Part shown: one piece after another, positions 30,599 through 49,403 of the stretch
Position numbering within the stretch: the stretch's first letter is position 1
How the letters are laid out: every line of letters starts with the position of its first letter
Assembly: GCA_050949175.1 (NCBI GenBank)
Contig: JBMNFG010000010.1
Location: forward strand, 222,186 to 286,185
From: Bacillota bacterium
GTDB taxonomy: Bacteria > Bacillota > SHA-98 > UBA4971
Reading direction: 5' to 3'
DNA: 64,000 nt
The notes under the pieces: model-generated
Told to the model about the DNA's origin: nothing
Seen by the model: the letters and a program-made list of their open reading frames with translations, nothing else
Databases searched by the model: none
Translations under genes and position numbers: made by a program

Positions 30599-31190
30599 CT
30601 GATTTCGCCTCCAGGAGAGTATGGGCTGATTCCAGGTCGGCCCAGGTGTTGATGTTGAAGAAACTTAGAAACGAAGGGCCGAACTTCCTTGTAATGTCCT
30701 CACTAATATGATAGACCCTAAGAGGTGCGATGAGGAGACTCGCTAACTTGCGATTATCTTGCTCAAGATGAGTTCTTATTATATCCAAAACCCTCTTGTC
30801 GTAAAAGGCATGCAGTGGCTCAATAAAGCGCCCAATACGCGGAATCACCACGTCGTATCTTGAGGCATACGATTTCATGTAGCAAATGAGGCCCTTGTTC
30901 AAGAAAGGCATATCGCAACCGCATACAAAGTTCACCTTATCATAAGTTGCCATTAAGCCTGCTTCAAGGCCTCCAAGGGGTCCTTTACCGGGGTGGGTGT
31001 CAGTGACTACGCGGCCTGGAAAGGCCGAATAGAGACTGGGGTCATTAGTGACAAGAATCAATTCGTCAAACAGTGGCTTTAGCCTTTCAACCACCCTATC
31101 TAGCAAGGTTTTACCTGCTAGCAGCTGTAGAGTTTTTCTTATCCCTCCCATTCTCTTGGAAGTTCCCCCTGCAAGGATTATTCCGGCCAT
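30588..31190 (-). CDS. mobA: molybdenum cofactor guanylyltransferase
   Basis: AGIILAGGTSKRMGG, PLGGLEAGL and CGCDMPFL motifs. 200 aa. Confidence 0.88.
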   Translation of the reverse strand: MAGIILAGGTSKRMGGIRKTLQLLAGKTLLDRVVERLKPLFDELILVTNDPSLYSAFPGRVVTDTHPGKGPLGGLEAGLMATYDKVNFVCGCDMPFLNKGLICYMKSYASRYDVVIPRIGRFIEPLHAFYDKRVLDIIRTHLEQDNRKLASLLIAPLRVYHISEDITRKFGPSFLSFFNINTWADLESAHTLLEAKSDVQ

Positions 31191-32008
31191 GCTGTCACAC
31201 CTTTGCTGAGAAATGCTTCACAGCCTCTCTCAATAAAGAGCACGAACAGTGATGCCGTGATGAGGTCAGCTGTAGTCCCCGGGTTAAGGTGGTTATTGTC
31301 ATCCCTCAAATAACTGTCCAAGTTCGCTTTAGCCTTCTTCCAATCATCCGAGCCGTGTCCTCCTGCATCCAAGGTTTCTTTCGCCATTGTTGACACTTCT
31401 TCGGCTCTCTCTCGGCCAACCTTTCTTGCAATCAATGTATCAGGTACCTCAGATAAGACTGTCAAGAAGGCTTGGACTACGGCGTCACTCCAGGACCTTA
31501 GTTCAGCCCTGGCTTTGAGCAGAGCAGGATATCCCAGAGTGAATGTAATCCGGTAATCAGAACAATACTCCAGAGCGATGCTGTCCCTGTCTTTCGCAAG
31601 ACGCATAGCCTCAAGCAATGTGATTGTGGGCTCATCTCTTACGTCGTGTTTGTCTACCTTTCCAATGCCGCCCGGCTATGTTTCCCTGATAGCAAGATAA
31701 GCCTTTCGGCAATCATCTACTGTAAGCGTCTTCAGTACATTACTTAGACGATTACGCAAAGAAGTAGGTGTTTTGTCTAATGCAGCCTTTGCCAGGGGTG
31801 CGAGAAGAAGAATCATCCCCAGGTTTGTGTTGGATTTGACATACTGTGCTGATGCCCGGCGTGCCGTCAAAATCAAATCTCCCACTGTGAGCTTATCTGC
31901 CTCGGCAAACACGAGAGCTGCCGCCCATGCAGATATTAGAAAATCCTCACACGTAGTATCCTGGAAATCATGGTAGCGCGTGACATTTCCCGGTTTCGGC
32001 GCCATCAC
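31178..32008 (-). pseudogene. CitG-family (triphosphoribosyl-dephospho-CoA synthase-like) gene interrupted by an in-frame TAG at 31676-31678
   Basis: ORFs 31676-32008 and 31178-31618 are in the same frame (both start positions are 1 mod 3). The joined translation reads ...AYLAIRET*PGGIGKVDKHDVRDEPTITLLEAMRLAKDRD.... It carries the KPGNVTR and NPGTTADL motifs of the family. No canonical start is visible for the upstream extension LLITPEEVAKAFGLASIVEV. Confidence 0.7.
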
Positions 32009-32058
32009 TTCAACAATGGACGCCAGCCCAAAAGCTTTGGCTACTTCCTCTGGTGTTA

Positions 32059-32355
32059 TCAGCAGCCTCCCCTCCCGTTTAAGACGAAGTCCGCAATCTC
32101 ATCTGCTATGTCAATGTCAGATACTCTTTGAAGGCCTTCCCATCCCGGAACCCCGTTCACCTCAAGGACGAACTCCTCCCAGTCTCGAGAACGAACAATA
32201 TCTACCCCTGCATACAGACAACCAATGGCCTCTGCTGCCTTGAACGCCAAATACTCTTGGCGGTCGGTAAGCTCAACAGGGCAACCTATAGCTCCTTGTG
32301 CGATGTTGGTTCTCCAGTTCGGCCTCCTGCCTGTCAAATCCCCTTGGTATTCCAC
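32059..32355 (-). pseudogene. C-terminal third of an ATP-grasp (RimK/MptN-like) ligase; the N-terminal two thirds are missing
   Basis: WRTNIAQGAIGCPVELTDRQEYLAFKAAEAIGCLYAGVDIV...VLEVNGVPGWEGL matches only the last part of the ATP-grasp fold. It is preceded directly by beta-RFAP synthase coding sequence in another frame. Confidence 0.7.
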
Positions 32356-32776
32356 CGGCTACCACGAGGCCGCCGTGTTCGAACAGCCCCAAACATGCGT
32401 CGGCGCGGAACCCTCGTAATACTATGCGTGCAATATCTTCCATTTCGCACCTGACATTATGGAGACGCGCCAGGATTATGCCAACTGCCATCCTCAACTG
32501 GACAGACGATCCAAAGCCGACATGAACCGGAATTGTCTCCTTTACCCGTAGCTTGGCTCCGCCTTTTATCCCGGCTTTTGAAAGGAAGTCACCGGCGATG
32601 TCTCTTACTCTCCGGGCATCGTTGCCGAAGACGTTCAATTCATGGTGCTCCTCAGCTAATATGACAATCTTAGGGTCTTCAAGAGCCACCCCGATACCTC
32701 CGTACATGCGCCCCAGGGAACCGTTGAGATCCAACTGTCCCAAGTGCAACCGAGAGTGGGCTTCAACCCTCAACAT
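32350..32776 (-). pseudogene. N-terminal half of beta-ribofuranosylaminobenzene 5'-phosphate (beta-RFAP) synthase (GHMP-kinase fold), truncated by deletion
   Basis: MLRVEAHSRLHLGQLDLNGSLGRMYGGIGVALEDP and the GHMP motif VGFGSSVQL are present. Homology stops after FEHGGLVVAGG at about 32350, and the ORF then runs into out-of-frame ATP-grasp sequence. Confidence 0.65.
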
Positions 32777-32899
32777 CCAAGTCACCAACCTTTCAGGCAT
32801 CGACGCTCTCATCCTGCACGGGAGCTACCAATCTAAACCAGCGTATGCAACTACAACCAAGCCAACTAAATTCTGACATACTTGAATTCTTTTGTAAGG

Positions 32900-33289: not shown

Positions 33290-34267
33290 TCACGTCAGGA
33301 AAGACGGTGCTACATAAGGCAGGAAGTACAAAGCCAGCGTGACTGCAAGAAGATCTCCGGAACCGCCGGGACTGATGCCGAGAGAGGTAAACTCCTTATC
33401 CATAAGAAGAATGCTACATCTTCCGTCTTCAGTGAGCATGCCGCCTTGCGATAAAGCCAGCCTTGCTCGCGGTTTTACAACGTCTTCCAGGGTTTCAACA
33501 GACGATCTATGAACCACGCAGGTATCGTCCAGATTAGCCATTATCGAGATCAGAGAGTGTACCATGGCATCGTTCAGTGAAAGGCCGCACTTGAGGGTTT
33601 TCTCCAGTGCAGGTAATCCGTGGTGAAAGACTGTAGGAAACCCTGCTTCAGCCTCGCCTCTTGCCCCTGTTAACCCGTGCATCATGTAGATACGCTCTCC
33701 GTTAGAAAGATGCCGAGGATCGGCTTTGACACGTCTTAAGCCAAGAAGGTCTCGCTCGACTATTCCGCAGGTTATGGCCTGTACTGTCCGGGTTGTTTGA
33801 AACCTGTCAGGTACTCCGCCGCCGGCAATGATGTACCCGGTAGATGCAGCTATCAACCCTAGACTGAATATTGCCCCTTTATGGGTATTCACGCCTCCGG
33901 TAGCCTCGTACATTCTAGCTTCCGCTTGAACCCCGATCGACCTCACCTTGTCCAGTAACCCGTGCACCGGTCCTGTATGGCCCATTCCTACCTCTGCCAT
34001 GGCAGCAAAACTCGGACCTATTGCAATAGCACTCCTGACAAGAGTCAGATAGTCCATGTCATCATGTGCACCAGAGCTAGTCATATCAACCAGCCCGGGC
34101 GCAGGTGTGCAAGATGCCTCGAGAATCAGGGCGAGAAGCAATACTTCGCCTATCCTTTGAGCCTCAGGCGAGATCTGTTCATAGTAGGTCTTCGCGCCTT
34201 GCCAGCTTAACTTCGCGGATTCCTTTGACAAGGATAGTATCTCTGCCTGATAAGAGCTCACGGCCAT
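33290..34267 (-). CDS. mdcB: triphosphoribosyl-dephospho-CoA synthase (MdcB/MadG) for the malonate decarboxylase ACP prosthetic group
   Basis: TPAPGLVD, VNTHKGAIFSLGL and GISPGGSGDLLA motifs. The start is uncertain: ATG 34267 or GTG 34282. Either overlaps mdcG by about 90-100 nt. Confidence 0.85.
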   Translation of the reverse strand: MAVSSYQAEILSLSKESAKLSWQGAKTYYEQISPEAQRIGEVLLLALILEASCTPAPGLVDMTSSGAHDDMDYLTLVRSAIAIGPSFAAMAEVGMGHTGPVHGLLDKVRSIGVQAEARMYEATGGVNTHKGAIFSLGLIAASTGYIIAGGGVPDRFQTTRTVQAITCGIVERDLLGLRRVKADPRHLSNGERIYMMHGLTGARGEAEAGFPTVFHHGLPALEKTLKCGLSLNDAMVHSLISIMANLDDTCVVHRSSVETLEDVVKPRARLALSQGGMLTEDGRCSILLMDKEFTSLGISPGGSGDLLAVTLALYFLPYVAPSFLT

Positions 34268-34964
34268 TAACTCCCCACCCACCTTTTAGCTGAACTTCTA
34301 CATCTATTCGTACGGCGAAGCTCTTCTCAAGTGCGTCAGCCAACTCAACGATGCGAGAGACTTCGTCTATGGAAACTCGTGCTACAACAACGTCTAGGTC
34401 AGAAATGCCGTCAGTGTACGGCAGCCCTGTATATATCTCCAGAGCACCCGAACCCCATACCCCAAACGCAATCTCCTCCCGCACTCTCTCTTTCATGACA
34501 GACAGTGCAGCTAACGCCGGGGTCCTTGGCACAACAGGAAGCCTTGCAACCTCCTGTGGAGTAATCCGCTTTGAAACAAATCGACGGTGAAGGACACACG
34601 GAATCCTTATCCTTCTTGATTCAGGCATAAACGGAATGACGAAGCCTACTGCAACGAAACCATCCATCGTACAGTCGCCGTATATCTCACGTGCAGAATC
34701 CATATCGCCATCGGTGAACCTTCTGACAATGCCGGGAAGGTGGACTCCGTTGCACCCATGTTCAAGCACGTGCTTGCAGTAGCGCCTGGCAGAAGGTGAA
34801 GGCCATGAGTCGACCTTCAGCAGACTCTTTATATCCCAAACGTACTGCGATAAATGCTTTCGGCCTTCCGGGGAGATTTCCACCAGGTCGTGCCTGGTAA
34901 ACTCATTGGATATCCCAACTTCTTGCAGAGGGTTCACCTCCTCTTCGTATATGCCGGATCCCAT
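34179..34964 (-). CDS. mdcG: phosphoribosyl-dephospho-CoA transferase (holo-ACP synthase MdcG type)
   Basis: FGVWGSGALEIYTGLPYTDGISDLDVVV nucleotidyltransferase signature. Its position is next to mdcB. Confidence 0.8.
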   Translation of the reverse strand: MGSGIYEEEVNPLQEVGISNEFTRHDLVEISPEGRKHLSQYVWDIKSLLKVDSWPSPSARRYCKHVLEHGCNGVHLPGIVRRFTDGDMDSAREIYGDCTMDGFVAVGFVIPFMPESRRIRIPCVLHRRFVSKRITPQEVARLPVVPRTPALAALSVMKERVREEIAFGVWGSGALEIYTGLPYTDGISDLDVVVARVSIDEVSRIVELADALEKSFAVRIDVEVQLKGGWGVNGRELLSGRDTILVKGIREVKLARREDLL

Positions 34965-36073
34965 ACCTTCTCTGTCTCATATTTAACCTGCGCTTCACTG
35001 AGAACATCGAAAAGCCTAGTCTTCTCCGGGCCCTCGATGAGAGCAGTAATACTTGGCTCAACGCCTGACGACGCGCTTTCACATACAGACAGAGACAGCT
35101 TCAAAAGAGTCCTCTCCGACTTGACCTTAACGTCCGGGGCGCATTTCACAATCCTCGCTTTTGTCCTCAAAATCGTTCTTGCGACTCTGTGCACCACCTC
35201 AGCATTGGGTAGAGGTGATTCGAGGACACATACTTCAAAATCAGGATACGTCCTCACGCGCCTGTAAGTTATGATTCTACCTTCTTTGTTCAGGACATGT
35301 CCTTTGGAACTGACAGGGAAGGAATCTGACATCGGAAGTCCGCCTACTACAAGCTCGCAATACTCTCCTCCTGCAGGAGACTTCACAAGTGAAATATCAT
35401 CCCTCAGCGGGACTCCGTCCATAGTAAGCCACCCGAACTCCTGACACCCGTAGAGATCATGGACTCTCGCACCCAAAAGCTCCTCTGCAACCGGAATAAG
35501 CTCAAGATCCATTGGAGTCCCTGCGACAAATATGGAGGTCACAGCAGGAAGGTGCCCGCCAATACCCAGCTTTTTTGCATCCTCCAAAGCATATCTAATG
35601 AATGTTGATTCCCCGACGATGAAGTCAGGCTTGTTTTCCAGAACCGCGAGAAGAAAAGCATCCCTCGTTGAACGTTGGAGAAAGCCGACGCTAATCCCCA
35701 GTTTTTGAAGGGCCTCCCACGGAAACACCAAGACCAAGGGGGGATATGTGAACAATGCCTTTGCGCCGCGCTTGATTCCCGCTCGCTCAAATGCAAGCAA
35801 GGATGCCTTGATTCTGTCGGGGATCTCACTTGAGGTGACACCGACTACGTTTTGAAAGGCAGTGGAACCTGTGGTAAACGATATATACGCATAATTCAAC
35901 GGAGTATGGACTTCTTCGATAACGTGGGCAGCGGTCGGTCCGTTTGCCCCTTTATCAACCAGGGTTCTCCTGGGCATTTCTTGAATGGTAGGAGCCTGGC
36001 CGGCAGTGGCTACGCCGGCTCTCAGTATTTCAAGGACCTGCTCCAGCTCAAACTCAGGGCGTAAATCCATCAT
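34934..36073 (-). CDS. adenylate-forming ligase (PaaK / F390-synthetase-like); candidate ACP-SH:acetate ligase (MadH-equivalent)
   Basis: FTTGSTAFQ (degenerate TSGTTG AMP motif) and DLYGCQEFGW. The gene sits where madH sits in the Malonomonas cluster. The functional assignment is by position only. Confidence 0.5.
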   Translation of the reverse strand: MMDLRPEFELEQVLEILRAGVATAGQAPTIQEMPRRTLVDKGANGPTAAHVIEEVHTPLNYAYISFTTGSTAFQNVVGVTSSEIPDRIKASLLAFERAGIKRGAKALFTYPPLVLVFPWEALQKLGISVGFLQRSTRDAFLLAVLENKPDFIVGESTFIRYALEDAKKLGIGGHLPAVTSIFVAGTPMDLELIPVAEELLGARVHDLYGCQEFGWLTMDGVPLRDDISLVKSPAGGEYCELVVGGLPMSDSFPVSSKGHVLNKEGRIITYRRVRTYPDFEVCVLESPLPNAEVVHRVARTILRTKARIVKCAPDVKVKSERTLLKLSLSVCESASSGVEPSITALIEGPEKTRLFDVLSEAQVKYETEKVWDPAYTKRR

Positions 36074-36953
36074 CCTCCCCTCCAAGCCAGCTGGAAAGTG
36101 CCAGATTAAACTCCTCTTCCATGAGCTCGATGACTTTCTCCGAGGTCTTTCTACCACCACGCTTAATACCTGACATCAGCCTGGACCAGGGACCTACTTT
36201 GTCATATTCGCCCGCTGCTTTCAGCCTTCGGATCTCATCTATTTGAGCCTTTACACGTGGCCGCATGTCTGCAACTGACTCTATGATTTCATCAACCCCA
36301 CCCAGGTTATAGAAGTGTGAGACTCCTGACGCAAACACCGGATTGCCCTCTGAAAGCTCTTCCAGAAGCATAATATTGATCTTCGTTACCCTGGCAATAC
36401 CCACCAGCGGCATTACATGGACCATAGTCCCGAACTCGTCAGAAAGTGCGAGGATCCTGTCTGCCTGAAGGCCGTGACAGAGGAACCCCCCGCTTATAGC
36501 TCTCCCAACAACCATTGCAACAATGGGATGGCCTGCTCTTCTTGCTTCTGCTGAAGCCAGCTGGTATGCACCTGTCGATTTGTAAATGCCTATGATTTCC
36601 TCAACTTTACCGGGGCTCATTCCCGGGGTATCGACTACCAGAATGATAGGCCTTTTCTCTGCTAGAGGCTTGTCTTTATCTGCTTTAATAGTCAAGTAGA
36701 CGGCATGGGCCATCTTGAAGCCTTCTTCAAGCCCCATGAGGCCTGCATAAACCATTCTGAAACGAGGGTTTGCAATCCCTGCGTCATTTGCAATAACAGT
36801 CACTGTCTCCCCTGACAGAGTGGCACTTCCCACCACCGCTGATTCCGCCCATTCAGGGTCAAGGGTCTCTCCTCCACAGAGGTTCTCTTCGAAAGAGCCT
36901 TCGTCAACTATGTAATCAATCGCATCGCGTCCCCTGCCAAAGAAGTTAATCAT
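36054..36953 (-). CDS. madD: malonate decarboxylase carboxyltransferase subunit (MadD / MdcE-like)
   Basis: AcCoA-carboxylase carboxyltransferase-alpha-like fold with IVAMVVGRAISGGFLCHGLQADRILAL. ATG at 36953 follows GGGGGAGGG and overlaps the madC stop by 8 nt. Confidence 0.85.
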   Translation of the reverse strand: MINFFGRGRDAIDYIVDEGSFEENLCGGETLDPEWAESAVVGSATLSGETVTVIANDAGIANPRFRMVYAGLMGLEEGFKMAHAVYLTIKADKDKPLAEKRPIILVVDTPGMSPGKVEEIIGIYKSTGAYQLASAEARRAGHPIVAMVVGRAISGGFLCHGLQADRILALSDEFGTMVHVMPLVGIARVTKINIMLLEELSEGNPVFASGVSHFYNLGGVDEIIESVADMRPRVKAQIDEIRRLKAAGEYDKVGPWSRLMSGIKRGGRKTSEKVIELMEEEFNLALSSWLGGEDDGFTP

Positions 36954-37926
36954 TATCTCCAACCCTCCCCCTGGGCCAGCGCCGGGCATTTGCCTCAAAT
37001 TCTGAGACATTGGAATCCCAGAGATACTCAATGTCTTCGTTACCAAACTGCCTCCAGAGATCCCAGGAGTCCTGGATTCTGTCGTTTGCAGCCAGGTCTA
37101 CAAGGCGCATCTGTTCCAGCACCATCTCTCCGGTGCCTATGATCCTTTTAGACGCTATCTTTTCAATGGGCCAACTTGCAACTTCGGCAACTTTTTCCCT
37201 AAATGCCTTCATTGTGTCTTCTACAATGAAATCCGCATCACGTGTGATGAACCTATGCCTACCTCCGGTTGTCCGCCATACCAAAGCCCGGTTGGCAGCA
37301 TCAAATTCCTCAGTCCCCACCACTTCTTCGATAACTCCGGGCCCTGTCAAGCCCAGCCTTCCTACATCACTCATGATGAGCACATCGACAGACGCTGCTA
37401 CAAAGCCCATTCCTCCGAAGCAGCCTACAGTGCCTCCGACAATTCCAATAATAGGCACTTTGCCTCTTGCTGCCTGGAATGCATCCATCACCTCAGAATG
37501 AGCCAAGAGGCCTGCGTTGGCTTCTTGAAGCCTTACTCCGCCTGTGTCAAAGGAAATCACTACTGCAACCCGGCCTCTGCTTTCAGAGGATTTGCTTCGT
37601 GACTCCAAAATCTCTTGTCCGCGCAAGGCAAGGCGGATGGCCATAACCATTTTCGTGCCGTGGGCTTCACCGACGCCTCCGCCTAAGAACTTGCTTTCTT
37701 GAGACACGACGACGGCGGGAGCTTTACCCACCGTTCCTAAACCTACAACTACCCCGTCATCAAACTGGGGGGTCTGGCCCATAGGAGGTAGATGGGGACT
37801 CGTCAATTTCAGCCTGGGACCTAACAGTTCAGTGAAACTTTCCGGATTACAGATGGCATACGCTCTTTCTCTCGCATTGAGTCTTGAAAAAGGCTGGTTC
37901 TGCAGCAGATTCCATCTATCGTCCAT
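36946..37926 (-). CDS. madC: malonate decarboxylase carboxyltransferase subunit (MadC / MdcD-like)
   Basis: Carboxyltransferase-beta-like. Motifs are VVVSQESKFLGGGVGEAHGTKM and FDTGGVRLQEANAGL. ATG at 37926 follows GGAGGTGG. Confidence 0.85.
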   Translation of the reverse strand: MDDRWNLLQNQPFSRLNARERAYAICNPESFTELLGPRLKLTSPHLPPMGQTPQFDDGVVVGLGTVGKAPAVVVSQESKFLGGGVGEAHGTKMVMAIRLALRGQEILESRSKSSESRGRVAVVISFDTGGVRLQEANAGLLAHSEVMDAFQAARGKVPIIGIVGGTVGCFGGMGFVAASVDVLIMSDVGRLGLTGPGVIEEVVGTEEFDAANRALVWRTTGGRHRFITRDADFIVEDTMKAFREKVAEVASWPIEKIASKRIIGTGEMVLEQMRLVDLAANDRIQDSWDLWRQFGNEDIEYLWDSNVSEFEANARRWPRGRVGDND

Positions 37927-37948
37927 ACGCAATAGCCACCTCCATGTA

Positions 37949-38281
37949 TTACCCGGATTTCTCTCGCGACATTTCTTTTGCCAGTTGCGCAAGTCTCAGC
38001 TTGACTACTGCCGGGGTGGCTCCGTCATCATTTATCCAGATTTCGCATGCACGCACTTTATGGGTGGCCATAAACTCATCGATAACCATCTGCCAGACGC
38101 TTCCAAACCCTACAGCACTGGTAGTAACGTGGAACTTAGTAACACCGGGCTCATGCGGCATTGGCTCTGCCAGAATCTCGAGGTCCCCGGACATTACATG
38201 TCCGATATGGATATACTCCCAGTCACGTTTACCTTTTTCAGCCGGTCCTAGATATTCAAATTCTAAACGTTCCAGAGCCAC
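37949..38281 (-). CDS. madE: malonate decarboxylase acyl carrier protein (MadE / MdcC)
   Basis: 110 aa. HVMSGDLEILAEP contains the prosthetic-group serine context (SGDLE). Confidence 0.9.
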   Translation of the reverse strand: MALERLEFEYLGPAEKGKRDWEYIHIGHVMSGDLEILAEPMPHEPGVTKFHVTTSAVGFGSVWQMVIDEFMATHKVRACEIWINDDGATPAVVKLRLAQLAKEMSREKSG

Positions 38282-38317
38282 GGCAATCCCCCTTCTCGGT
38301 GCGCATACCTGTCTGTT

Positions 38318-40000
38318 CTACCATTCCCTGAACCTGTCCGGAGGACGGTAAAGCCCGCCTGACCATTCCACCAAGTCTCTTATGGAGCGAGCTGCAAGAA
38401 GTGAAGTGTTTGCCTCTCCAACATCGATACCTAGATCTTCCGGAGTCTGGACTATTCCTTTACGTCTCAGCTCCAGAGTTTTCTTGGGATCAGCCTCTCT
38501 GCCCAACTCTGTGTACCCTGCTACAGCTTTGATAGCAGATTCTCGCTCCTCTAGCGAAGTACACTTAAGAAGGTGGGCTATTCCTTCCTCAGTAACCAGG
38601 TGTGTAACGGCATCGCCGTATACCATAATGGGTGGAATCGCAAAACCTGCTTCCTCCATAAGTGTCCATGCGTCCAGACGATGGACAAAGCTTGGAACAA
38701 GTCCTGCCCCAAAGGTCTCCACCATCTGAATGACTAATTTCTTTCCGCGCGGAACCGGCCCGATGAGCGAACTCGTTACAACGCTTTCTTTACCTGCCTT
38801 AAGCCAACTGGGAGAAGAGTGCCGCCTCCCCGGCGGATCGCATCCCATGTTCGGTGCACCGCCAAACCCTGCAATCCTGCCTGCAACCGCAGCAGAGCTG
38901 TTGCCGTACTTGTCAACCTGCAGAGTCGACCCTACAAAAGCATCAATGGCATAATGGCCCGCTACCTGACACATAGCCCTGTTTGACCTCATGCTTCCGT
39001 CAGGTCCTATAAAGAACACATCCGGACGGCTTGCCATGTAGTCTTCCATCCCTACTTCGGAACCGAATGAGTGGATGGACTCAACAAACCCGGTTTCAAT
39101 AGCAGGAATAAGGCTGGGATGCGGATTCACAGCCCAATGGGAGCAGACCTTGCCCTTAAGACCGAGGCTTTCTCCAAAGGTAGGAAGGAGCAATTCGATT
39201 GCGCAAGTCCCAAAGCCTATTCCGTGGTTTAAGGACTTTACTTCATATTCTTTGTAGATGCCCTTAATCACCATCATGGCCATGAGGACGTGCACATCTG
39301 TTATAAGCGCAGGATCCCTTGTGAAGAGAGGCTCAGTGTAGCAAGGCCTGCCCACCGGGACAAGAAAATCTACCCACTCAGCGGGAATATCAACCCGTGG
39401 CAACTTATCTATGACCCTCTCAACCTGTGCCACGACAATTCCCTGTCTGAACTTGGTGGCTTCAACAATCGTAGGTGTATCCTCCGTGTTCGGCCCGGTA
39501 TACAGATTGCCGGCCCCGTCCGCATAAATCGCGGTAATCAGCGCTACGTCCGGAGTAAGGTCAACGAAATAGCGGCCGAACAGTTCAAGGTAGGTGTGGA
39601 TCTCCCCGATCTTCATCTTACCTTCCTCCACCATCCGGGCCACTCTTGTACTCTGAGGAGCTGAGTATGAGAAATCGGCAAGCCGGGCTATTCCACGCTC
39701 AAAGATCTCACAGTGGGATGGTAGAGCAATGACTGACTGCACCATGTGAAGATCATTCACTCGATCCACGTCTACTCTGCATAAACACTCTGCCAGAAAG
39801 TCAGCTTGTTTTTGGTTATTTCCCTCAAGAGCTACCCTGTCACCCGGCCGAATCACAGCCTCTAACAGGGATACGCACTCATTAGGATTCACCACCTTGC
39901 TGCCTGGCTCAGATACAAACTGTTGTGCCTGACGCAGCCTCTTCTGAAATTCTTCCTGCCTTCGTGTCCAGTCAGTCCTTCTCGAAGCCCTGTTTTCCAT
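38318..40000 (-). CDS. madA: malonate decarboxylase alpha subunit, acetyl-S-ACP:malonate ACP transferase (MadA / MdcA)
   Basis: 560 aa. Matches my memory of MdcA in LEGNNQKQADFL, GNLYTGPNTEDTP, LNHGIGFGTCAIELLLPTFGESLGLKGK, GSMRSNRAMCQVAG and GFGGAPNMG. Confidence 0.92.
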   Translation of the reverse strand: MENRASRRTDWTRRQEEFQKRLRQAQQFVSEPGSKVVNPNECVSLLEAVIRPGDRVALEGNNQKQADFLAECLCRVDVDRVNDLHMVQSVIALPSHCEIFERGIARLADFSYSAPQSTRVARMVEEGKMKIGEIHTYLELFGRYFVDLTPDVALITAIYADGAGNLYTGPNTEDTPTIVEATKFRQGIVVAQVERVIDKLPRVDIPAEWVDFLVPVGRPCYTEPLFTRDPALITDVHVLMAMMVIKGIYKEYEVKSLNHGIGFGTCAIELLLPTFGESLGLKGKVCSHWAVNPHPSLIPAIETGFVESIHSFGSEVGMEDYMASRPDVFFIGPDGSMRSNRAMCQVAGHYAIDAFVGSTLQVDKYGNSSAAVAGRIAGFGGAPNMGCDPPGRRHSSPSWLKAGKESVVTSSLIGPVPRGKKLVIQMVETFGAGLVPSFVHRLDAWTLMEEAGFAIPPIMVYGDAVTHLVTEEGIAHLLKCTSLEERESAIKAVAGYTELGREADPKKTLELRRKGIVQTPEDLGIDVGEANTSLLAARSIRDLVEWSGGLYRPPDRFREW

Positions 40001-40014
40001 ATTCTCAAGTCCCT

Positions 40015-40278
40015 CTATAGTTCTTCTAAGGTCATAAGGAGATCTCCGACTTTAACCATGTCCCCTGTAGTTGCATGGATCTCCACTACTTTTCCCTTCT
40101 TAGGTGCGAGTATCTGGTTTTGCATTTTCATAGCTTCGATAAACGCTACTTCCTGTCTTTCCTCAACAACATCTCCTACCCCGGGTAGGTCCGTATTTTT
40201 CATAGGGTGTTTACCGGGATGTATGGTAACCTGCCCGGGCAGCTTCGCTCTGATTTCAACCAAGTTTCCGTTTGCCAT
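40015..40278 (-). CDS. madF: biotin carrier protein of malonate decarboxylase (MadF type)
   Basis: 87 aa lipoyl/biotinyl domain with the biotinylation motif EAMKM. Confidence 0.9.
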   Translation of the reverse strand: MANGNLVEIRAKLPGQVTIHPGKHPMKNTDLPGVGDVVEERQEVAFIEAMKMQNQILAPKKGKVVEIHATTGDMVKVGDLLMTLEEL

Positions 40279-40318
40279 ATAAAACTACACCTCCTAGAGA
40301 TTCGTAACAGCTGGCTAA

Positions 40319-41458
40319 CTAACCAAGTAAGGCTAAGAAGCATCCTGCTGCAACCGCTGTTCCGATTACGCCTGCGACATTCGGGCCCATCGCATGCATA
40401 AGCAGGAAGTTTTCAGGGTTCGCCCTTTGCCCCTCAACCTGACACACTCGCGCAGCCATGGGGACTGCTGACACTCCGGCTGCACCGATAATCGGGTTTA
40501 TCTTGCCTCCGCTCAATATGTAAAAAAGCTTTCCCAGGAGCACGCCACCTGCTGTACTGGCTGCAAATGCGATAGCGCCCAGGGCAATTATTTTAAGGGT
40601 TGCAACAGTTAAGAACGTTTCAGCACCCATTGTTCCCCCTACTGCTATGGTGAGGAGTATAGTCACTATGTTAACCATTTCACCTTGCGCCGTCTTAAAC
40701 AAGCGATCCGTCACACCTGACTCCCGCAAGAGGTTCCCCAGCATCAAGCAGCCTATAAGCGGGGTAGTATCTGGCAGCAACATACAGGTGACAATCGTTG
40801 TAACAATCGGGAATAGGATTTTCGTAGTCTTCGGTACAGGCTTGGGATACTCCATCACAGTCTCGCGTTCTTTTTGCGTAGTTAGAAGGCGAATAACCGG
40901 TGGCTGGATTAAAGGCACAAGTGACATATACGAATAAGCCGCAACTGCAACAGCTCCTAGCAGGTGAGGAGCAAGCTTTACACTAAGATAAATCGCAGTC
41001 GGGCCGTCTGCTCCACCGATTATCGCAATAGAAGCTGCCTCTTTAATGCCGAAGCCAAACATATCTGCGAGGAACATAGCAAAAAAGACACCAAATTGCG
41101 CCGCTGCTCCCAGCAGAAAAGTTACAGGCCGGGCAAGCAATGGAGTAAAATCAGTCAGAGCACCTATTCCCAGGAAGATCAAACACGGCAGTATCTCTGT
41201 TTCCAGTCCGTATTTATAGAAGTAATAAAGAAGTCCCCCTTCATCTGAAATGCCCGCTCCCGGTATATTAGCTAACAAGCACCCAAAGGCTATCCCTACA
41301 AGAAGCAGAGGCTCAAAGCCTTTGACAATAGCCAGGTAAAGGAGGACAAGGGCAACTCCGATCATTATCATGTTTCCTATTGTCAAGCCCATAAGTCCGC
41401 CGGAAGCTAAGACTGACCCTAGTGTTTTCAAAAACAACGATATCCCCCCACTTGCCAC
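40319..41458 (-). CDS. madB: Na+-translocating carboxybiotin decarboxylase beta subunit (OadB/GcdB/MadB family)
   Basis: 379-aa polytopic membrane protein with GNLLRESGVTDRL and the conserved C-terminal GAAGVSAVPMAARV. The start is uncertain: GTG 41458 or a downstream TTG. Confidence 0.9.
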   Translation of the reverse strand: MASGGISLFLKTLGSVLASGGLMGLTIGNMIMIGVALVLLYLAIVKGFEPLLLVGIAFGCLLANIPGAGISDEGGLLYYFYKYGLETEILPCLIFLGIGALTDFTPLLARPVTFLLGAAAQFGVFFAMFLADMFGFGIKEAASIAIIGGADGPTAIYLSVKLAPHLLGAVAVAAYSYMSLVPLIQPPVIRLLTTQKERETVMEYPKPVPKTTKILFPIVTTIVTCMLLPDTTPLIGCLMLGNLLRESGVTDRLFKTAQGEMVNIVTILLTIAVGGTMGAETFLTVATLKIIALGAIAFAASTAGGVLLGKLFYILSGGKINPIIGAAGVSAVPMAARVCQVEGQRANPENFLLMHAMGPNVAGVIGTAVAAGCFLALLG

Positions 41459-41498
41459 AAGCTAATGCCCGTTACTCGCCCAGAACACCTACTCAATC

Positions 41499-41615
41499 TC
41501 ATTCAGACGTAATCGCACTGAGGGCCATAATCACGAGACAAAGAAGGCCCGTCACCAGGAAGACAATGGAGATTGATACAAGACATACTGTGAGTGTACT
41601 AAGTTCGAATCCCAA
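41499..41615 (-). CDS. possible 38-aa single-TM subunit (OadG-like) preceding madB; not in the supplied ORF track
   Basis: TTG start 7 nt after GGGGGTGA. Product MGFELSTLTVCLVSISIVFLVTGLLCLVIMALSAITSE. Small anchor subunits commonly accompany this pump family. Confidence 0.35.
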   Translation of the reverse strand: MGFELSTLTVCLVSISIVFLVTGLLCLVIMALSAITSE

Positions 41616-41657
41616 AACCTCACCCCCACTGCGTTTACCAACTGAAAACCATGAACG

Positions 41658-42686
41658 TCACCGAAGATTTCGTATGAAATCAGTTAAAAGGCTAGCTGTC
41701 TGTTCCATTGTGTTAAGGTCAACAACTTCGTACGGTGAATGAGAGTTTCTCCTTGGTACTGTTATAGAAACGCATTTTATGTCAGACCACTCATCGTAAA
41801 CCCCGGCTGCGTCTGTAAACAGGCCAAATCGCACATCCAGGCTGTAAGGAACATCGGCTCTTTTCGCTGATTCCCTAAGATCAGTAACAAGCTGAGGGTC
41901 GGCAAAGAACAACAGCATACCTCTTAACGGCTTTACTGACTCAAACCGTCTTATAACCGGCCCTGTCCCCAGTGGGACGCCTACGCCTGGGCCTGCTTCA
42001 GGGTCGCCGCCGTACCCGGTGTCAATGGAAATCGCCCACTTCGGATGGACCGTCTTTGCAAGGTGCCTGGCTCCCCTGCAGCCGATCTCCTCCTGGACTG
42101 TAAAGGCAAACATCACATTGATATCGAGGTCCACATCTGCCACGCGTCGTGCAGTCTCAAGCAAAACAGCGCACCCTTGCCTGTTATCAACTGCTCTTGA
42201 AGCAAGCAGAGTCTCCTCATCATTTAACCATCGCGGGACTGTGTCAAATACTATTGGGTCTCCCGGCTCCACCTGTGAACAGCGCGGCCCTGCATCAATC
42301 CAAAGGCGGTTTAGGGTTTGACCCAGATGAGTGCTGGGTGACCGGACTACACCGGGAACAGGACCTTTCTCTGTCAGTACCAGAACAGGCTGACCCGAAG
42401 TTACAGCAGGGTTTATGTCCACCACAAAGTCAAACCAAACAAACCCGTCTCTAACATCAGTCGTAACCATGCTTACTTCGTCCATATGAGCCAGAAGCGC
42501 CAAAGTCGGAGCCCCTTCCGGGCCCTTCTTCGTGGCAAGCAAGTTCCCCATTCCATCCACTTGGATAGTGGAGATATACGGTTCGACCTTCTTACGGATC
42601 ACCTCTGCCACAGGTTGTTCAAACCCGGAAGGGCCCGGGATTCTCACAAGTTCAAGAAGATCTCTGCGGAGCTCTGTAATACCCAT
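41658..42686 (-). CDS. M42 family metallopeptidase / aminopeptidase-like hydrolase
   Basis: 342 aa. LLAHMDEVSMVTT and FTVQEEIGCRGA metal-ligand motifs (FrvX/YsdC family). Confidence 0.85.
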   Translation of the reverse strand: MGITELRRDLLELVRIPGPSGFEQPVAEVIRKKVEPYISTIQVDGMGNLLATKKGPEGAPTLALLAHMDEVSMVTTDVRDGFVWFDFVVDINPAVTSGQPVLVLTEKGPVPGVVRSPSTHLGQTLNRLWIDAGPRCSQVEPGDPIVFDTVPRWLNDEETLLASRAVDNRQGCAVLLETARRVADVDLDINVMFAFTVQEEIGCRGARHLAKTVHPKWAISIDTGYGGDPEAGPGVGVPLGTGPVIRRFESVKPLRGMLLFFADPQLVTDLRESAKRADVPYSLDVRFGLFTDAAGVYDEWSDIKCVSITVPRRNSHSPYEVVDLNTMEQTASLLTDFIRNLR

Positions 42687-42695
42687 TTATTCCAC

Positions 42696-43481
42696 CTACT
42701 CAGCATCAAATGCTACAATCCTGCATATGGAAGATTCGCCGCCGACAAATCTCCATGGGAAGCAACCGATAATCATTCTCTTGTTAAGGATCTGGTCTAT
42801 GTCCCCTCCTACGTTCTCAGCGTGGATAATGGTGTGAGGGAACAGAAGCGTGTGCATTATCTGATAATCCGCCGGCGGGAAGAAATCATCAAGGCCTTTG
42901 CCGTACTTGTTCTTAAGGTATTCATCCGCCTCTTTCGCCTGGACAGGCATCCATTCACGGATCTTGGTGTTCATTGGGTGGTCGGCAGACCCGCAGTCCA
43001 CAGCAAGCCATTTCAGTTCCATTTCCTTGCACCATTCAGCAAACTCTCTGGTAGGTCCGGGATGCTTTATCATGTACCTGACTTCATCAGCCTCAGGCTG
43101 ATCCCAGGCATACTTGTGATAACCTGTGTTAATAACGAGAATGTCTCCTTTTTTTACTTCAACCCTGTCTGTAATGTCTTTTTGTGTATAAATCCCGTAG
43201 TCTTCCGAGATGTCGCTGAGGTCTACGATGACTCCGGGCCCAACAAGGTAATCCAAAGGCAGGCTGGCGATATCCTTGCCATGGGTGCAGAAGTGAAGAG
43301 GCCCGTCAAGATGGGTCCCTACGTGGTTTGACGTGGTAATAAGCTGCCCGTTGGCACCGTTGGGACTGAGTCTCTTGAAGAACTTAATCTGAAGCGGCTC
43401 ATAAGTCGGCCACGGCGGTGTGAGATGGCTTAACGGCTGTGTGAGGTCATACATCTTCACTTTGTCCCAATACTTAAGCAT
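42696..43481 (-). CDS. cyclase-family (PF04199, kynurenine-formamidase-like) metal-dependent hydrolase
   Basis: HVGTHLDGPLHF signature (HxGTHxDxPxH). Confidence 0.85.
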   Translation of the reverse strand: MLKYWDKVKMYDLTQPLSHLTPPWPTYEPLQIKFFKRLSPNGANGQLITTSNHVGTHLDGPLHFCTHGKDIASLPLDYLVGPGVIVDLSDISEDYGIYTQKDITDRVEVKKGDILVINTGYHKYAWDQPEADEVRYMIKHPGPTREFAEWCKEMELKWLAVDCGSADHPMNTKIREWMPVQAKEADEYLKNKYGKGLDDFFPPADYQIMHTLLFPHTIIHAENVGGDIDQILNKRMIIGCFPWRFVGGESSICRIVAFDAE

Positions 43482-43520
43482 TTTGTCTCATCCTCCTCAA
43501 GAGATCTTTTTTACTAAGTC

Positions 43521-44939
43521 CTAGCTTTCGTTAGCGTACTTTTTGCCAAAGGCGATAATCGCCTTTTCAAAACACTCCCAAGGCGGGTTTACAAGCCCGG
43601 CTCCCACTTGCCCGACTCCGGGGTCTTTATGGGCAATCCCGGTATTGATCTGTGGCAATATACCTGTTTCCACTACTTTTCTGATGTCTATGCCTGTAGG
43701 TGTGCCTCTGAAGTTCAAGATAGGTATGGTGAAGTACCTGCTCTCTGAGATCGTTATGCTGTACATCTTCTCAGAGAACCTGACTGCATCATCAGGCGTG
43801 CCGCCTACGAATTGAACAATTGGGATTGCAGCTGCCATCGCAAACCCGCCAACACCTGCAGTTTCGGTTATGGCAGAGTCCCCGATATCGGGATTTGCGT
43901 CATCTTCACTATATCCTGGGAAGTAGAGGCCTTTTACTACCTGTGCAGGCCCGGTAAACCACTGATTTCCCAATCCGCTTACTTTGATTCCGAACTCAGT
44001 ACCGTTTCTCGCCATTATCGTCACGACAGAACTCTTCTCGATGCCGTGAGCTGCTTCAAGCATTGCCTTGACTGCAGGCATGGAAAGGTTAAGGAAGAAA
44101 TGGTCATTGGAGTTGATAAATTCCAGGCACCTTCTGATATCTGCCTGCGGAAAATCAAGTCCCACAAGGTGAGGTACTATGGCTCGCACAAAGAGGGATG
44201 TCCCTGCCCTGTTCCGGTTGTGCACCTCATCACCCATGTGCAGTGCCTGGGCTATCATTGACTTAAGGTCTATACCGCCTGAGGCCTCGATCGCCTTCTT
44301 CAAAACCGGGGCTAGGCCTTTCTCCATCCATTTCAGCCGTTCCAGGACTTCTTCACCGTAAGCTCCGTACCGGAGGACTTTTCCTAAGCCTTCGTTTAGC
44401 GTACAATATGACCTGTTTCCGTGAGTCCTGTTCTCAATGATAAACACAGGCATCCTAGGTGAGACTACCCCGGCCATCGGCCCTACTGCAGAATGCTCAT
44501 GACACGGCGAGTATTCAATTTCACCTTTTGACGCCAGGTCCTCGGCTTTTTCCGGCGTATCTGCCCAACCTTCGTACAGAATCGCACCGATTACAGCACC
44601 GCGGAGAGGCCCTGACATCTTCTCCCAGGTTATGGGAGGGCCGGCATGAAGTAGCATACGGTCGCCAAACCCGGGGATTACATCGCGGGCGATACCGATA
44701 CCTACGAGAACAGGTTGAGCCTCACTGAATATCTCAATCGCCCTTTGGTTAGCCTCATCAATATCACTTCTGTCCTTCAGCTTATCCAAGATATCAATAA
44801 GCTCAGCCTTACCGTGGGCAGGCGGTTGCCACTTGACCTGATACACCTTGGCACCTTGTTCCTGCATAGATTCAGCAAACACGCTGCTTCCTACGTTGAT
44901 TACTCCCCCTTCGGGGGGCCAGTTCTTTATCGTAAGCAC
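43521..44939 (-). CDS. DUF1116 protein (YlbE-like)
   Basis: MLLHAGPPITW...PCHEHSAVGPMAGVVSPRMPVFIIENRTHGN...NEGLGKVLRYGAYG matches my memory of YlbE. It overlaps the fdrA stop by 13 nt. Confidence 0.8.
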   Translation of the reverse strand: MLTIKNWPPEGGVINVGSSVFAESMQEQGAKVYQVKWQPPAHGKAELIDILDKLKDRSDIDEANQRAIEIFSEAQPVLVGIGIARDVIPGFGDRMLLHAGPPITWEKMSGPLRGAVIGAILYEGWADTPEKAEDLASKGEIEYSPCHEHSAVGPMAGVVSPRMPVFIIENRTHGNRSYCTLNEGLGKVLRYGAYGEEVLERLKWMEKGLAPVLKKAIEASGGIDLKSMIAQALHMGDEVHNRNRAGTSLFVRAIVPHLVGLDFPQADIRRCLEFINSNDHFFLNLSMPAVKAMLEAAHGIEKSSVVTIMARNGTEFGIKVSGLGNQWFTGPAQVVKGLYFPGYSEDDANPDIGDSAITETAGVGGFAMAAAIPIVQFVGGTPDDAVRFSEKMYSITISESRYFTIPILNFRGTPTGIDIRKVVETGILPQINTGIAHKDPGVGQVGAGLVNPPWECFEKAIIAFGKKYANES

Positions 44940-46507
44940 GGTCTTGCTCCTCCCCGCTCCTTGATGATCCGAGCTACCAGTTCAGTTGCTGCCCTATTAG
45001 AAAACAGGACCTCTGCTCCTGCTTCCCGCAAGATTCCAGCTTGCTTTTCTACATCCTGGGGGTCTCCGGCAGTGCCGACTATAACAGCAATCTGCACTAA
45101 CCCTTTGCCCATATCCTCACGAATCCGACGAGCTTCCTTCACAGCTTCAGCTGTCACGCCTGCAGGATTCGGATGACTTCCGTAACCCAACACCAGGTCA
45201 AATAGGAGAATTCCTACATCCTCATGACGTGCCTCCTCAATATGGCGGGGGATCCTCAGTCCGGGTTCCAGCATTGGGTGAGGCTTGCCTCGGGTGAAAT
45301 AGTCCTCTCCCATATCAATGCAGGTATGCGCAACGCTCTCCAGAGGGTTCGTAAGTAAGAATTCCTTATCCTGTGCGATGTTGGAATATGCATCTATTCC
45401 GGCTCTTCTAAGGATAGTGAGGGTTTCATGGCACAAGGTTCCACCTGAGTACAATCCTCTGAGGAACCCTTCACCGTCGATGGTTCTCGCAAGTCTATAC
45501 GCCAACTCATCAAGTTCACTGTCGGAATGGAGCCTCTCTTTACCTTCGCCGCTTGTTAACCGGCAAGCCAAAACCGCAGTCTCCTCAAGGTCTCCGGCAA
45601 ACAGCACCTTACCTGATTCGCTTCTTTGCGCTTTAACATCCTCGCCCATGAAGCAGACAACTGCAGGTTTTGACCCATCCTCCAGCGCTCTTATGAGGTT
45701 GTCACGAACACTTGGATGAGGCGGCTTTGATATGACTACTTTGACAGCAGTATTAGAATCTGATTCAAGAAGGGCTAGCCCCATAAAGGTCGTGATCCCC
45801 CCGACCTCTTCGGACAGGTCACGGCCGCCTGTCCCGATAGCTTCACTGATCCCTTCGCCAAGGCTGTCAATGACTGACATTACCTGTTGCAGCCCTGTGC
45901 CTGCTGCAGCCACAAGACCGATCCTGCCTGGTCTCACTTTATTGGCAAATCCTAATCCCACTCCGCCTATGACAGCAGTTCCGCAATCAGGCCCCATAAC
46001 AAGGAGGCCGTTTTCTTTACCAAGCTTCTTTAAGCGAATCTCATCCTCAATAGAGACGTTATCGCTGAAGAGGAAAACGTGTAACCCACGGGCAAGGGCC
46101 TCCCTTGCTTCCCTTGCAGCGTACTCTCCGGGAACGGATATCGCTGCAATCCCGGCGTCCCCTGCAGCTGCTGCTTCAGATAGAGTCGCGTAGGTTTTTT
46201 CTCCCTTCACCGCGGTCTCTTCGTGTTTGACAGAGCCTTCGAGACCCTCATTAATGGCTCTTTCTGCGCTATCTAAGGCACCTTCATCCTCTGCCACAAC
46301 AGCGATGACAAGATCGTTAGGCGTAGCAGCCTCCAGCTCTTCTGAGGAAAACCCCATTTCTCTGACTGCATCTTTGTTCAGGTCAGTCGCCATTCCTACC
46401 TGAGCTTCAACTACGTCATCTATATTTCGCACCTTTCGGGCCAGGCGCATGAGGACAATAGAGTCATAGTAACTATTGGGCTTTATTACCAACCTCTTGA
46501 ACACCAA
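44927..46507 (-). CDS. fdrA: FdrA (succinyl-CoA-synthetase-alpha-like, CoA-ligase fold) protein
   Basis: 526 aa. VMGPDCGTAVIGGVGLGFANKVRPGRIGLVAAAGTGLQ and Rossmann-like N- and C-domains. Confidence 0.85.
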   Translation of the reverse strand: MVFKRLVIKPNSYYDSIVLMRLARKVRNIDDVVEAQVGMATDLNKDAVREMGFSSEELEAATPNDLVIAVVAEDEGALDSAERAINEGLEGSVKHEETAVKGEKTYATLSEAAAAGDAGIAAISVPGEYAAREAREALARGLHVFLFSDNVSIEDEIRLKKLGKENGLLVMGPDCGTAVIGGVGLGFANKVRPGRIGLVAAAGTGLQQVMSVIDSLGEGISEAIGTGGRDLSEEVGGITTFMGLALLESDSNTAVKVVISKPPHPSVRDNLIRALEDGSKPAVVCFMGEDVKAQRSESGKVLFAGDLEETAVLACRLTSGEGKERLHSDSELDELAYRLARTIDGEGFLRGLYSGGTLCHETLTILRRAGIDAYSNIAQDKEFLLTNPLESVAHTCIDMGEDYFTRGKPHPMLEPGLRIPRHIEEARHEDVGILLFDLVLGYGSHPNPAGVTAEAVKEARRIREDMGKGLVQIAVIVGTAGDPQDVEKQAGILREAGAEVLFSNRAATELVARIIKERGGARPCLR

Positions 46508-47361: not shown

Positions 47362-47513
47362 GTCAGTGTCATTATTCCAAACTGCAGTGTTGTAAACCTT
47401 TATGAAATGACTATAAAGTTTAGCCGTTTATTATGTTAAAAAGTATCAGTTTATTAGGAAAAACCAGGCAGCAAAGGGACTATGAGGACTCGGATACTAC
47501 GTGGAATAGCGAA

Positions 47514-49217: not shown

Positions 49218-49403
49218 GTGAAACCCTCCATGAACCACCGGCAGTTAGTAACGAATCTCCGGATATGTTATCGCGATATTCTCTTTTTTCTATCTTTGTT
49301 TAGATTCGCCATATGTTCCCTGAATTCCTTTAATAAGTACAACAAAGGGGGCTTTGTTCAAGCCCCCTCACTACTGTATCAAACAGCTAAAGATGAACCG
49401 GGA

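Follow-up and report, generated by a model that had tools for sequence, protein, structure and literature searches.

A malonate decarboxylase gene cluster without a malonate carrier adjoins nucleobase-type catabolic genes in a Bacillota bacterium

Introduction

Malonate-fermenting specialists, which import their substrate, are known to draw all of their energy from Mad-type malonate decarboxylases. In Malonomonas rubra the mad genes run in the order G-B-A-E-C-D-H-K-F-L-M, an order that we reproduced from open reading frames (ORFs) and Pfam matches on NZ_FQZT01000031 (locus L049), where MadF, MadL and MadM were recognized. Here we analyze a stretch of 64,000 nucleotides (nt) from an uncultured, anaerobic Bacillota bacterium (GTDB lineage Bacteria; Bacillota; SHA-98; UBA4971; GenBank assembly GCA_050949175.1, contig JBMNFG010000010.1, positions 222,186 to 286,185 of the forward strand), hereafter called the window; members of its genus are known from anaerobic digesters. 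It carries a Mad cluster at positions 33290–41615 that has no importer and is apparently co-transcribed with genes of nucleobase type, an arrangement that suggests an energy-saving end step for malonate formed inside the cell. We lean toward a reading in which an operon produces malonate internally from an imported pyrimidine and Mad, as the final step, conserves energy.

The window shares with the M. rubra system the A-E-C-D-H-K core order, a free-standing AMKM biotin carrier and a membrane subunit of the OAD_beta family, and the amino acid (aa) identities are 61% for MadA, 42% for MadE, 51% for MadC, 58% for MadD, 56% for MadH, 31% for MadK/MdcG and 35% for MadG/MdcB. It differs in that its beta subunit is only 35% identical to MadB and falls in a generic clade, a 38-aa peptide precedes beta, MadL and MadM are absent, beta and MadF come first and MdcB last, and the cluster lies inside what appears to be an operon for the catabolism of an N-heterocycle. 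The soluble Mdc enzymes (mdcABCDEFGH of Klebsiella, Pseudomonas and Acinetobacter) have in common with it homologs of MdcA, of the acyl carrier protein (ACP), of the MdcD/E-type carboxyltransferase, of MdcB and of MdcG, and the MadC and MadD of the window pass NCBIfam models named “biotin-independent”. Unlike those enzymes, the window encodes a biotin carrier, a membrane beta subunit and the MadH ligase, and lacks MdcH and the MdcF/AEC carrier. The OadGAB, Mmd and Gcd pumps have a beta subunit of the same type as the window, where a small membrane peptide also occupies an OadG-like position; however, the genome lacks an alpha-type carboxyltransferase, and the carboxyl donor would be malonyl-S-ACP, acting via MadC/MadD.

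The aerobic oxidative pyrimidine pathway reportedly comprises, from work on Rhodococcus, a uracil/thymine dehydrogenase, a barbiturase and a ureidomalonase. The route that we propose shares with this pathway the intermediates barbiturate and ureidomalonate and the end product malonate, but would free the ureido group as carbamoyl phosphate, yielding ATP, and not as urea. It also differs in the Na+ pump on malonate decarboxylation and the anaerobic host, and no barbiturase of the AtzD/TrzD type was found in the search weighed below. For the other genes the known counterpart is the Escherichia coli oxamic transcarbamylase AllFGH, which phosphorolyses oxalurate to carbamoyl phosphate and oxamate (PMC11326118) and is accompanied by a catabolic carbamate kinase (PMC9843812). 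All three subunits have relatives in the window, and a carbamate kinase is encoded in the genome and, at several comparable loci of other bacteria, beside these genes. The set in the window differs from that of E. coli in being tied to a pyrimidine-type permease, a molybdenum (Mo) hydroxylase and malonate decarboxylation, and its proposed substrate is ureidomalonate.

Results

Data and searches

Gene calls were taken from the ORF list of the window, and families were assigned by Pfam and NCBIfam profile scans using the NCBIfam equivalog cut-offs. Searches of the organism’s own genome covered the whole assembly (14 contigs, 92% complete). For the comparison of Mad clusters, 175 relatives of the ligase were collected in a scan of species genomes and 80 loci were kept; the Mad loci of three further genomes, referred to as the sister genomes, were compared with the window. 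The upstream gene module was surveyed in an even sample of 401 genomes of the phylum, and 20 regions were fetched. Promoters and terminators were called by consensus scans only. All evidence is computational: gene identities, synteny and distribution were read directly from it, and from these we infer every substrate and the assignment of each hydrolase to a step.

The window encodes a complete Mad-type enzyme

The region 33290–41615 contains ten intact ORFs on the minus strand. An earlier note on this DNA, made from the letters alone, had described the same ten-gene order and had read the presence of a biotin carrier and a membrane beta subunit as the mark of a complete Mad-type enzyme; the Pfam and NCBIfam scans, together with the intact ORFs, confirm this description. 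In the direction of transcription, a membrane peptide of 38 aa with a single helix, located where an OadG-like anchor would stand (41499–41615; a conserved ORF with no Pfam match), is followed by the carboxybiotin decarboxylase, or Na+ pump beta subunit, of the generic OadB/GcdB/MmdB type (40319–41458; OAD_beta, PF03977, 514 bits; TIGR01109, 487 bits) and by MadF, a free-standing biotin carrier of 87 aa (40015–40278; Biotin_lipoyl, 59 bits; EAMKM). Then come MadA, the acetyl-S-ACP:malonate ACP transferase (38318–40000; mdcA equivalog TIGR01110, 903 bits against a cut-off of 789), the acyl carrier protein MadE (37949–38281; TIGR03130, 94 bits against 84; SGDLE) and the carboxyltransferase subunits MadC (maximal ORF 36946–37992; NF005530, 339 bits, and TIGR03133, 316 bits, both above cut-off) and MadD (maximal ORF 36054–37046; TIGR03134, 275 bits against 237). 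The last three genes encode the adenylate-forming ligase that we assign to MadH (34934–36073; acetate:HS-ACP ligase by homology, with only a weak AMP-binding match), the holo-ACP synthase MdcG/MadK (34179–34964; Pfam MdcG, 71 bits; TIGR03135, 98.4 bits against a cut-off of 99.7) and the triphosphoribosyl-dephospho-CoA synthase MdcB/MadG (33290–34282; Pfam CitG, 254 bits; TIGR03132, 264 bits against 282). Since the family alignments set in only at residues 25–47, translation of madC, madD and mdcB probably starts some 15–40 codons downstream of the maximal ORF starts. Adjacent Mad genes overlap or are separated by 14–42 nt.

Alignment showed the EAMKM biotinylation motif of MadF, with Lys51 invariant, and the SGDLE motif of MadE, with Ser31 invariant. 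The biotin ligase that the earlier note had suggested looking for is present in the genome as BirA. The ORFs are intact, and the catalytic and attachment motifs are kept. The 38-aa ORF has no match to Pfam OAD_gamma; it lies directly upstream of the beta gene and is kept in four genomes. Its start position, its length of 38 codons and its ribosome-binding site, GGGGGTGA, are identical in the window and the three sister genomes, and its start codon is ATG, GTG or TTG across the four. We hold with high confidence that the Mad cluster is real and complete, and that it encodes a variant of the Malonomonas-type malonate decarboxylase with biotin and a membrane pump.

The Mad genes follow a set of nucleobase-type genes

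Upstream of the Mad genes, and like them on the minus strand, lie genes of nucleobase type. Three subunits of a Mo hydroxylase are encoded first: a FAD-binding subunit (53557–54441; FAD_binding_5, 161 bits, and CO_deh_flav_C), a 2Fe-2S subunit (53057–53548; Fer2_2 and Fer2) and a Mo-cofactor subunit (50709–53057; MoCoBD_1, MoCoBD_2 and Ald_Xan_dh_C). The FAD-binding subunit gene stands beside the cyclase and AllFGH-like genes in most of the 20 regions fetched from other genomes, and the 2Fe-2S subunit gene is likewise syntenic there. The Mo-cofactor subunit, a putative uracil (or thymine) dehydrogenase, is XdhA-like at 595 bits, under every equivalog cut-off; in the three sister genomes its orthologs are 85–89% identical and share a contig with the Mad cluster, about 5 kb upstream of it. 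Next is a nucleobase permease of the NCS2 family that is closest to uracil permease (49404–50660; Xan_ur_permease, 307 bits), scoring 375 bits on the uracil permease model NF007995, 331 on RutG and 220 on xanthine permease, all under the cut-offs. A terminator-like hairpin with a 10-bp stem, including 6 G-C pairs, and a T-rich tail follows the permease gene (49345–49369; a consensus match only).

The genes after the hairpin encode a PucR-family regulator (47514–49238; PucR, GGDEF_2 and HTH_30 domains), with a homolog in most of the other loci, and then an AllH-like subunit (46486–47361; Pfam AllH, 79.7 bits), an FdrA/AllF-like subunit (44927–46507; NF004760 FdrA, 471 bits against a cut-off of 433; 69–76% identity in the sister genomes) and an AllG-like subunit (43521–44939; Pfam AllG, 348 bits; 86–90% identity in the sister genomes). 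A promoter-like site, TTAACA-18-TATAGT, precedes the allH-like gene (47410–47439; 10 of 12 positions match, again by consensus only). Two hydrolase genes complete the series. The first encodes a metal hydrolase of the cyclase family (42696–43481; Pfam Cyclase, 124.5 bits), whose nearest solved relatives are kynurenine formamidase and isatin hydrolase and which we propose as a ring-opening amidohydrolase in the role of a barbiturase. The second encodes a dinuclear metallohydrolase of the M42 family (41658–42686; Peptidase_M42, 194 bits), a candidate amidase for the conversion of malonamate to malonate; this protein is far under the aminopeptidase equivalog cut-offs and is 82–85% identical in the sister genomes. 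M42 genes 28–30% identical to that of the window also stand beside two Mad clusters of Lachnospiraceae with generic-type beta subunits (L070:1763–2824 and L080:11792–12847), by chance or through a functional link between M42 and Mad.

The M42 gene and the first Mad gene lie only 42 nt apart with no terminator between them, and the consensus scan gave no convincing terminator in the approximately 14 kb from allH to mdcB. This segment appears to be one transcript of about 14 kb, with a candidate start at the promoter-like site. The order FdrA-AllG-cyclase-M42-peptide-Mad is kept in the three sister genomes at 68–92% aa identity. All 21 genes from the Mo hydroxylase through mdcB are intact ORFs with full-length family matches, which, with the retained catalytic and attachment motifs and with sister orthologs that differ mostly by conservative changes, speaks against a decaying or silent acquisition, in which genes that arrived together on an island would no longer be used. 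The island is indeed variable within the genus, where MadA was found in five of eight genomes and two genomes lack both the cyclase gene and the beta subunit, and genes just downstream of the cluster look degraded, such as a CitG fragment at 31178–31618; even so, we consider decay very improbable.

The upstream module recurs in other lineages

An ortholog of the cyclase-family gene was found in 34 of the 401 sampled genomes, and the protein is 72–92% identical across Moorella, Alkaliphilus, Thermotogota, Omnitrophota and Bathyarchaeia. The 20 fetched regions have a recurrent core of PucR-AllH-FdrA-AllG-cyclase together with the Mo hydroxylase and the NCS2 permease, which we call the module; the cyclase gene adjoins AllG at 18 of them. 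Additional genes are linked to the module in part of these 20 loci, namely a carbamate-kinase-like gene (10 loci), a C-N hydrolase gene (11) and a family III CoA-transferase gene (6). The M42 gene was not found at the 20 other module loci, 11 of which have the C-N hydrolase instead; the M42 gene takes the place held by the C-N hydrolase in other lineages. A gene of the nitroreductase family lies in the module between the C-N hydrolase and decarboxylase genes in two unrelated lineages (L128:7266–7763 and L141:11557–12045).

At L128 the module is accompanied by a full biotin-dependent acyl-CoA decarboxylase pump, comprising a 518-aa carboxyltransferase, OAD_gamma, a biotin carrier and a beta subunit that is 62% identical to that of the window, with the biotin-carrier gene between the OAD_gamma and beta genes. 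Beta genes also adjoin the module in L141, G364 and G313. The module is thus joined by two decarboxylation chemistries, the ACP-based Mad reaction and the combination of CoA-transferase with acyl-CoA decarboxylase, and because these are two different Na+-pump routes attached to the same module, they point to a malonate-type product.

The arrangement also varies within the family. In the window’s genus PucR is preceded by the hydroxylase and permease genes, and the cyclase gene is followed by M42 and Mad. At locus L125 of genome G098, which belongs to a sister genus in the same family, PucR-AllH-FdrA-AllG-cyclase is followed directly by the Mo hydroxylase and permease genes, an order unlike that of the window; no Mad genes, carbamate kinase or C-N hydrolase were found there within 10 kb.

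The malonate is probably formed inside the cell

The earlier note had reported that the window contains neither a madL/madM- or mdcF-type carrier nor MdcH. Both absences extend beyond the window to the genome as a whole. No match to MadL, MadM or the AEC/MdcF carriers exceeded its cut-off anywhere in the assembly, and a true MdcH was not found genome-wide, the only candidate being a FabD-like gene on another contig that scored 233 bits against a cut-off of 298. The lack of MdcH is expected of a Mad system, because M. rubra also lacks it. MadL/MadM genes adjoin the Mad genes at 56 of the 80 other loci and at none of the three sister loci.

Mad clusters elsewhere are malonate-utilization loci with a carrier of their own, and the present one might likewise serve external malonate, taken up by a carrier of an unrecognized family, with the N-heterocycle genes merely abutting the Mad operon. 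Such a carrier could be missing from a 92% complete assembly in 14 contigs or belong to some other family, and at least three further Mad loci (L070, L078 and L080) similarly show no MadLM within 10 kb. We nevertheless rate this explanation as improbable, considering that the assembly holds no MadL, MadM or AEC carrier, that no terminator interrupts the 42 nt from M42 to Mad, that the fused arrangement has been kept in three sister genomes at 68–92% identity, and that this module is combined with another kind of Na+-pumping decarboxylase in other lineages. The suggestion of the earlier note that malonate is generated inside the cell fits the absence of a carrier and gains strong support from genes that the note had not connected with the cluster, the permease, Mo hydroxylase, AllFGH-like and hydrolase genes on the same strand, an arrangement kept in the sister genomes. 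Mad probably acts, then, on malonate made inside the cell.

The pump subunit belongs to a generic clade

The beta gene had been labeled a madB of the Malonomonas type, and this label could not be upheld. On the corresponding equivalog, TIGR03136, the protein scores 169 bits against a cut-off of 597, and in a maximum-likelihood tree the Malonomonas-type MadB clade is split off with 100/100 support, the window beta forming a long branch of its own within the generic OadB/GcdB/MmdB clade. Its identity is 30–36% to the MadB of most Mad clusters, 49–60% to six others, 60–66% to ordinary beta subunits across the phylum and only 51–61% to the betas in genomes of its own family. Judged by its sequence, the beta subunit is a member of the generic OadB/GcdB/MmdB clade and not a Malonomonas-type MadB. 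Generic betas linked to Mad occur at no fewer than three places in the generic clade; generic betas were, according to the tree, recruited in at least three Mad lineages, and the Mad enzyme can work with pumps of two deeply separated beta clades. An origin of the window beta from the acyl-CoA decarboxylase pump that accompanies the module elsewhere was neither supported nor excluded by the tree, given its long separate branch.

The earlier note had raised the possibility that the beta subunit and biotin carrier might group with oxaloacetate or glutaconyl-CoA decarboxylase partners encoded elsewhere. The beta subunit does cluster with the generic betas of oxaloacetate and acyl-CoA decarboxylases, but no partner enzymes were found elsewhere in the genome. 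The assembly contains no second beta subunit, no carboxyltransferase beyond an AccD/AccA-like pair and MadC/MadD, in particular no oxaloacetate or acyl-CoA alpha subunit, and no biotinyl protein beyond an AccB-like one and MadF. Because beta is the only subunit of its kind and the remaining carboxyltransferase and biotin proteins are only Acc-like, the pump has no partner other than Mad and can only serve it. The protein behind a third, weak biotin-lipoyl match, on contig C11, belongs to the HlyD family and is no biotin enzyme.

The ligase is orthologous to MadH

The earlier note had taken the ligase at 34934–36073 for a PaaK-like enzyme that might re-acetylate the ACP as a non-orthologous substitute. 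The first part agrees with structural comparison. A sequence search against the Protein Data Bank returned nothing at E ≤ 1; in a Foldseek search with an AlphaFold2 model of moderate quality (pLDDT 69), the top folds were PaaK1, PaaK2 and the PaaK-like BT_0428 (E about 2e-7, TM about 0.38). The second part is contradicted by the comparison with other Mad clusters. In M. rubra DSM 5091 the gene that stands between madD and madK, in the MadH position, shows 56% identity to the ligase, and in all 80 loci kept the ligase gene sits in a Mad cluster adjoining madD; the family has 636 relatives, with a mean column identity of 65% over ten diverse members. Because of this identity, the shared H position and the constant company of Mad clusters, the ligase is the MadH ortholog itself and not a substitute enzyme. 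Mad systems of at least 80 species ordinarily prime their ACP with an enzyme of this PaaK-like MadH family. We found no description of MadH in the openly readable literature.

A proposed route from uracil to acetate and a sodium gradient

The genes from the Mo hydroxylase to mdcB can be arranged into a single route. Uracil would enter through the NCS2 permease and be oxidized to barbiturate by the Mo hydroxylase; a pyrimidine of this kind fits because the permease scores best on the uracil permease model and is accompanied by a Mo hydroxylase. The cyclase-family hydrolase would open barbiturate to N-carbamoylmalonamate (ureidomalonate), a role that suits a family including the lactam- and amide-cleaving isatin hydrolase and kynurenine formamidase. 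Opening of the barbiturate ring gives ureidomalonate, a homolog of oxalurate that is longer by one carbon. Since oxalurate is cleaved by AllFGH, phosphorolysis of ureidomalonate by the AllFGH-like enzyme would be expected to give carbamoyl phosphate and malonamate. Carbamate kinase, detected in the genome at 445 bits by profile search, could then convert carbamoyl phosphate to one ATP, and the M42 hydrolase would free malonate from malonamate.

Mad would finally convert malonate to acetate and CO2 and build up a Na+ gradient; the roles of MadA to MadH are assigned here by homology with the Malonomonas enzyme. MdcB and MdcG would build the 2′-(5″-phosphoribosyl)-3′-dephospho-CoA arm and attach it to Ser31 of MadE, and the MadH ligase would prime the arm with acetate at the expense of ATP. 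MadA would exchange the acetyl group for malonate on the ACP, after which MadC/MadD would move the free carboxyl group to the biotin of MadF, biotinylated by BirA, with regeneration of acetyl-ACP. The beta subunit, perhaps aided by the 38-aa anchor peptide, would decarboxylate carboxybiotin and export Na+.

Whether uracil is the source of the malonate by this route we regard as evenly balanced, and we put no more and no less trust in the wider proposal that the Mad pump is the terminal step of a hitherto undescribed pyrimidine fermentation, with a hybrid Mad that combines ACP chemistry with a generic OadB-type pump and an OadG-like peptide. A different N-heterocycle could also yield malonate or an analog within the cell: thymine would lead to methylmalonate, and a hydroxylated or purine-derived ring to oxalurate and oxalate or to a substituted malonate. 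The xanthine dehydrogenase and 4-hydroxybenzoyl-CoA reductase models give the Mo-cofactor subunit equal scores, neither of them above its cut-off, PucR regulators are typical of purine catabolism, and family III CoA-transferases, found at six of the 20 module loci, include oxalate-activating enzymes. In addition, the sole characterized AllFGH acts on oxalurate (PMC11326118). Against these indications, MadA passes a malonate-specific equivalog at 903 bits, the decarboxylase at L128 has a biotin carboxyltransferase of the malonyl-, methylmalonyl- or glutaconyl-CoA kind and is no oxalyl-CoA decarboxylase, the permease fits the uracil permease model best and the xanthine permease model least, and no allantoin genes were found within the window; chemically, moreover, a pyrimidine ring would be expected to yield a three-carbon dicarboxylate and a carbamoyl unit. 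Another heterocycle is accordingly an unlikely source, though one that we take more seriously than external malonate.

Several observations weigh against a pyrimidine route that ends in Mad. MadA was found in only three of the 401 sampled genomes and in none of the other 33 that bear the module, so that a link with Mad characterizes this genus and not the module in general, and many module loci have no linked decarboxylase within 10 kb. Co-transcription of the module with Mad rests on the consensus scans only, and the genome, being 92% complete, may encode an unrecognized dicarboxylate carrier. The permease and the Mo hydroxylase lie under all equivalog cut-offs, so that uracil is a best guess from their sequences. 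The carbamate kinase of this genome sits in a different, purine-type cluster. The AtzD/TrzD family of barbiturases was not found, in a search that carries little weight as control genomes gave no signal either, and we know of no precedent for a barbiturase of the cyclase family. An amidase role for an M42 “aminopeptidase” is speculative, and given the M42 homologs beside two unrelated Mad clusters (L070 and L080), the M42 protein may serve Mad and not the supply pathway. Which of the two hydrolases, cyclase or M42, acts at which step is a guess.

If the pyrimidine route holds, its bearing would extend beyond this genus. No other observation to date points as specifically as the fusion with Mad to free malonate being what the PucR-AllFGH-cyclase-Mo hydroxylase-permease module produces, and, because MadA is specific for free malonate, this lineage would reveal which carbon compound is made by a module that many anaerobic phyla possess. 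The arrangement would support an oxygen-independent, oxidative route for uracil that yields ATP from carbamoyl phosphate as well as a sodium gradient; we found no paper describing such a route.

Neighboring genes and other observations

The carbamate kinase gene lies on contig C12, where positions 39576–48522 (L213:1577–10523) encode, in order, a pyridoxal phosphate (PLP) enzyme, an HTH-cupin regulator, carbamate kinase, an Amidohydro_1 protein, an M20 hydrolase, a 2Fe-2S protein, a MobA-like protein, XdhC and a GltD-like flavoprotein. This cluster resembles anaerobic purine genes of the ygeX/hyuA/ygeY/yqeA type.

Among the Mad loci of the comparison set, five that come from assemblies titled Bacteroidaceae, Segatella copri, Escherichia coli, Bacteroides sp. 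and Ruminococcus intestinalis (L012, L013, L014, L016 and L021, respectively) have Mad clusters whose identities to the proteins of the window are close to those of the Phascolarctobacterium loci; these bins are probably mislabeled or mixed.

In the window itself, the region 31178–32812, beyond a tRNA-His at the end of the operon, contains a 146-aa C-terminal fragment of CitG (31178–31618), a short N-terminal piece of a GHMP kinase and then mobA-like and fdhD-like genes, which resemble gene remnants. At the other end, a dihydrolipoyl dehydrogenase gene (54719–56098; TIGR01350, 567 bits), whose product might accept electrons from the hydroxylase, lies on the same strand 277 nt upstream of the Mo hydroxylase genes.

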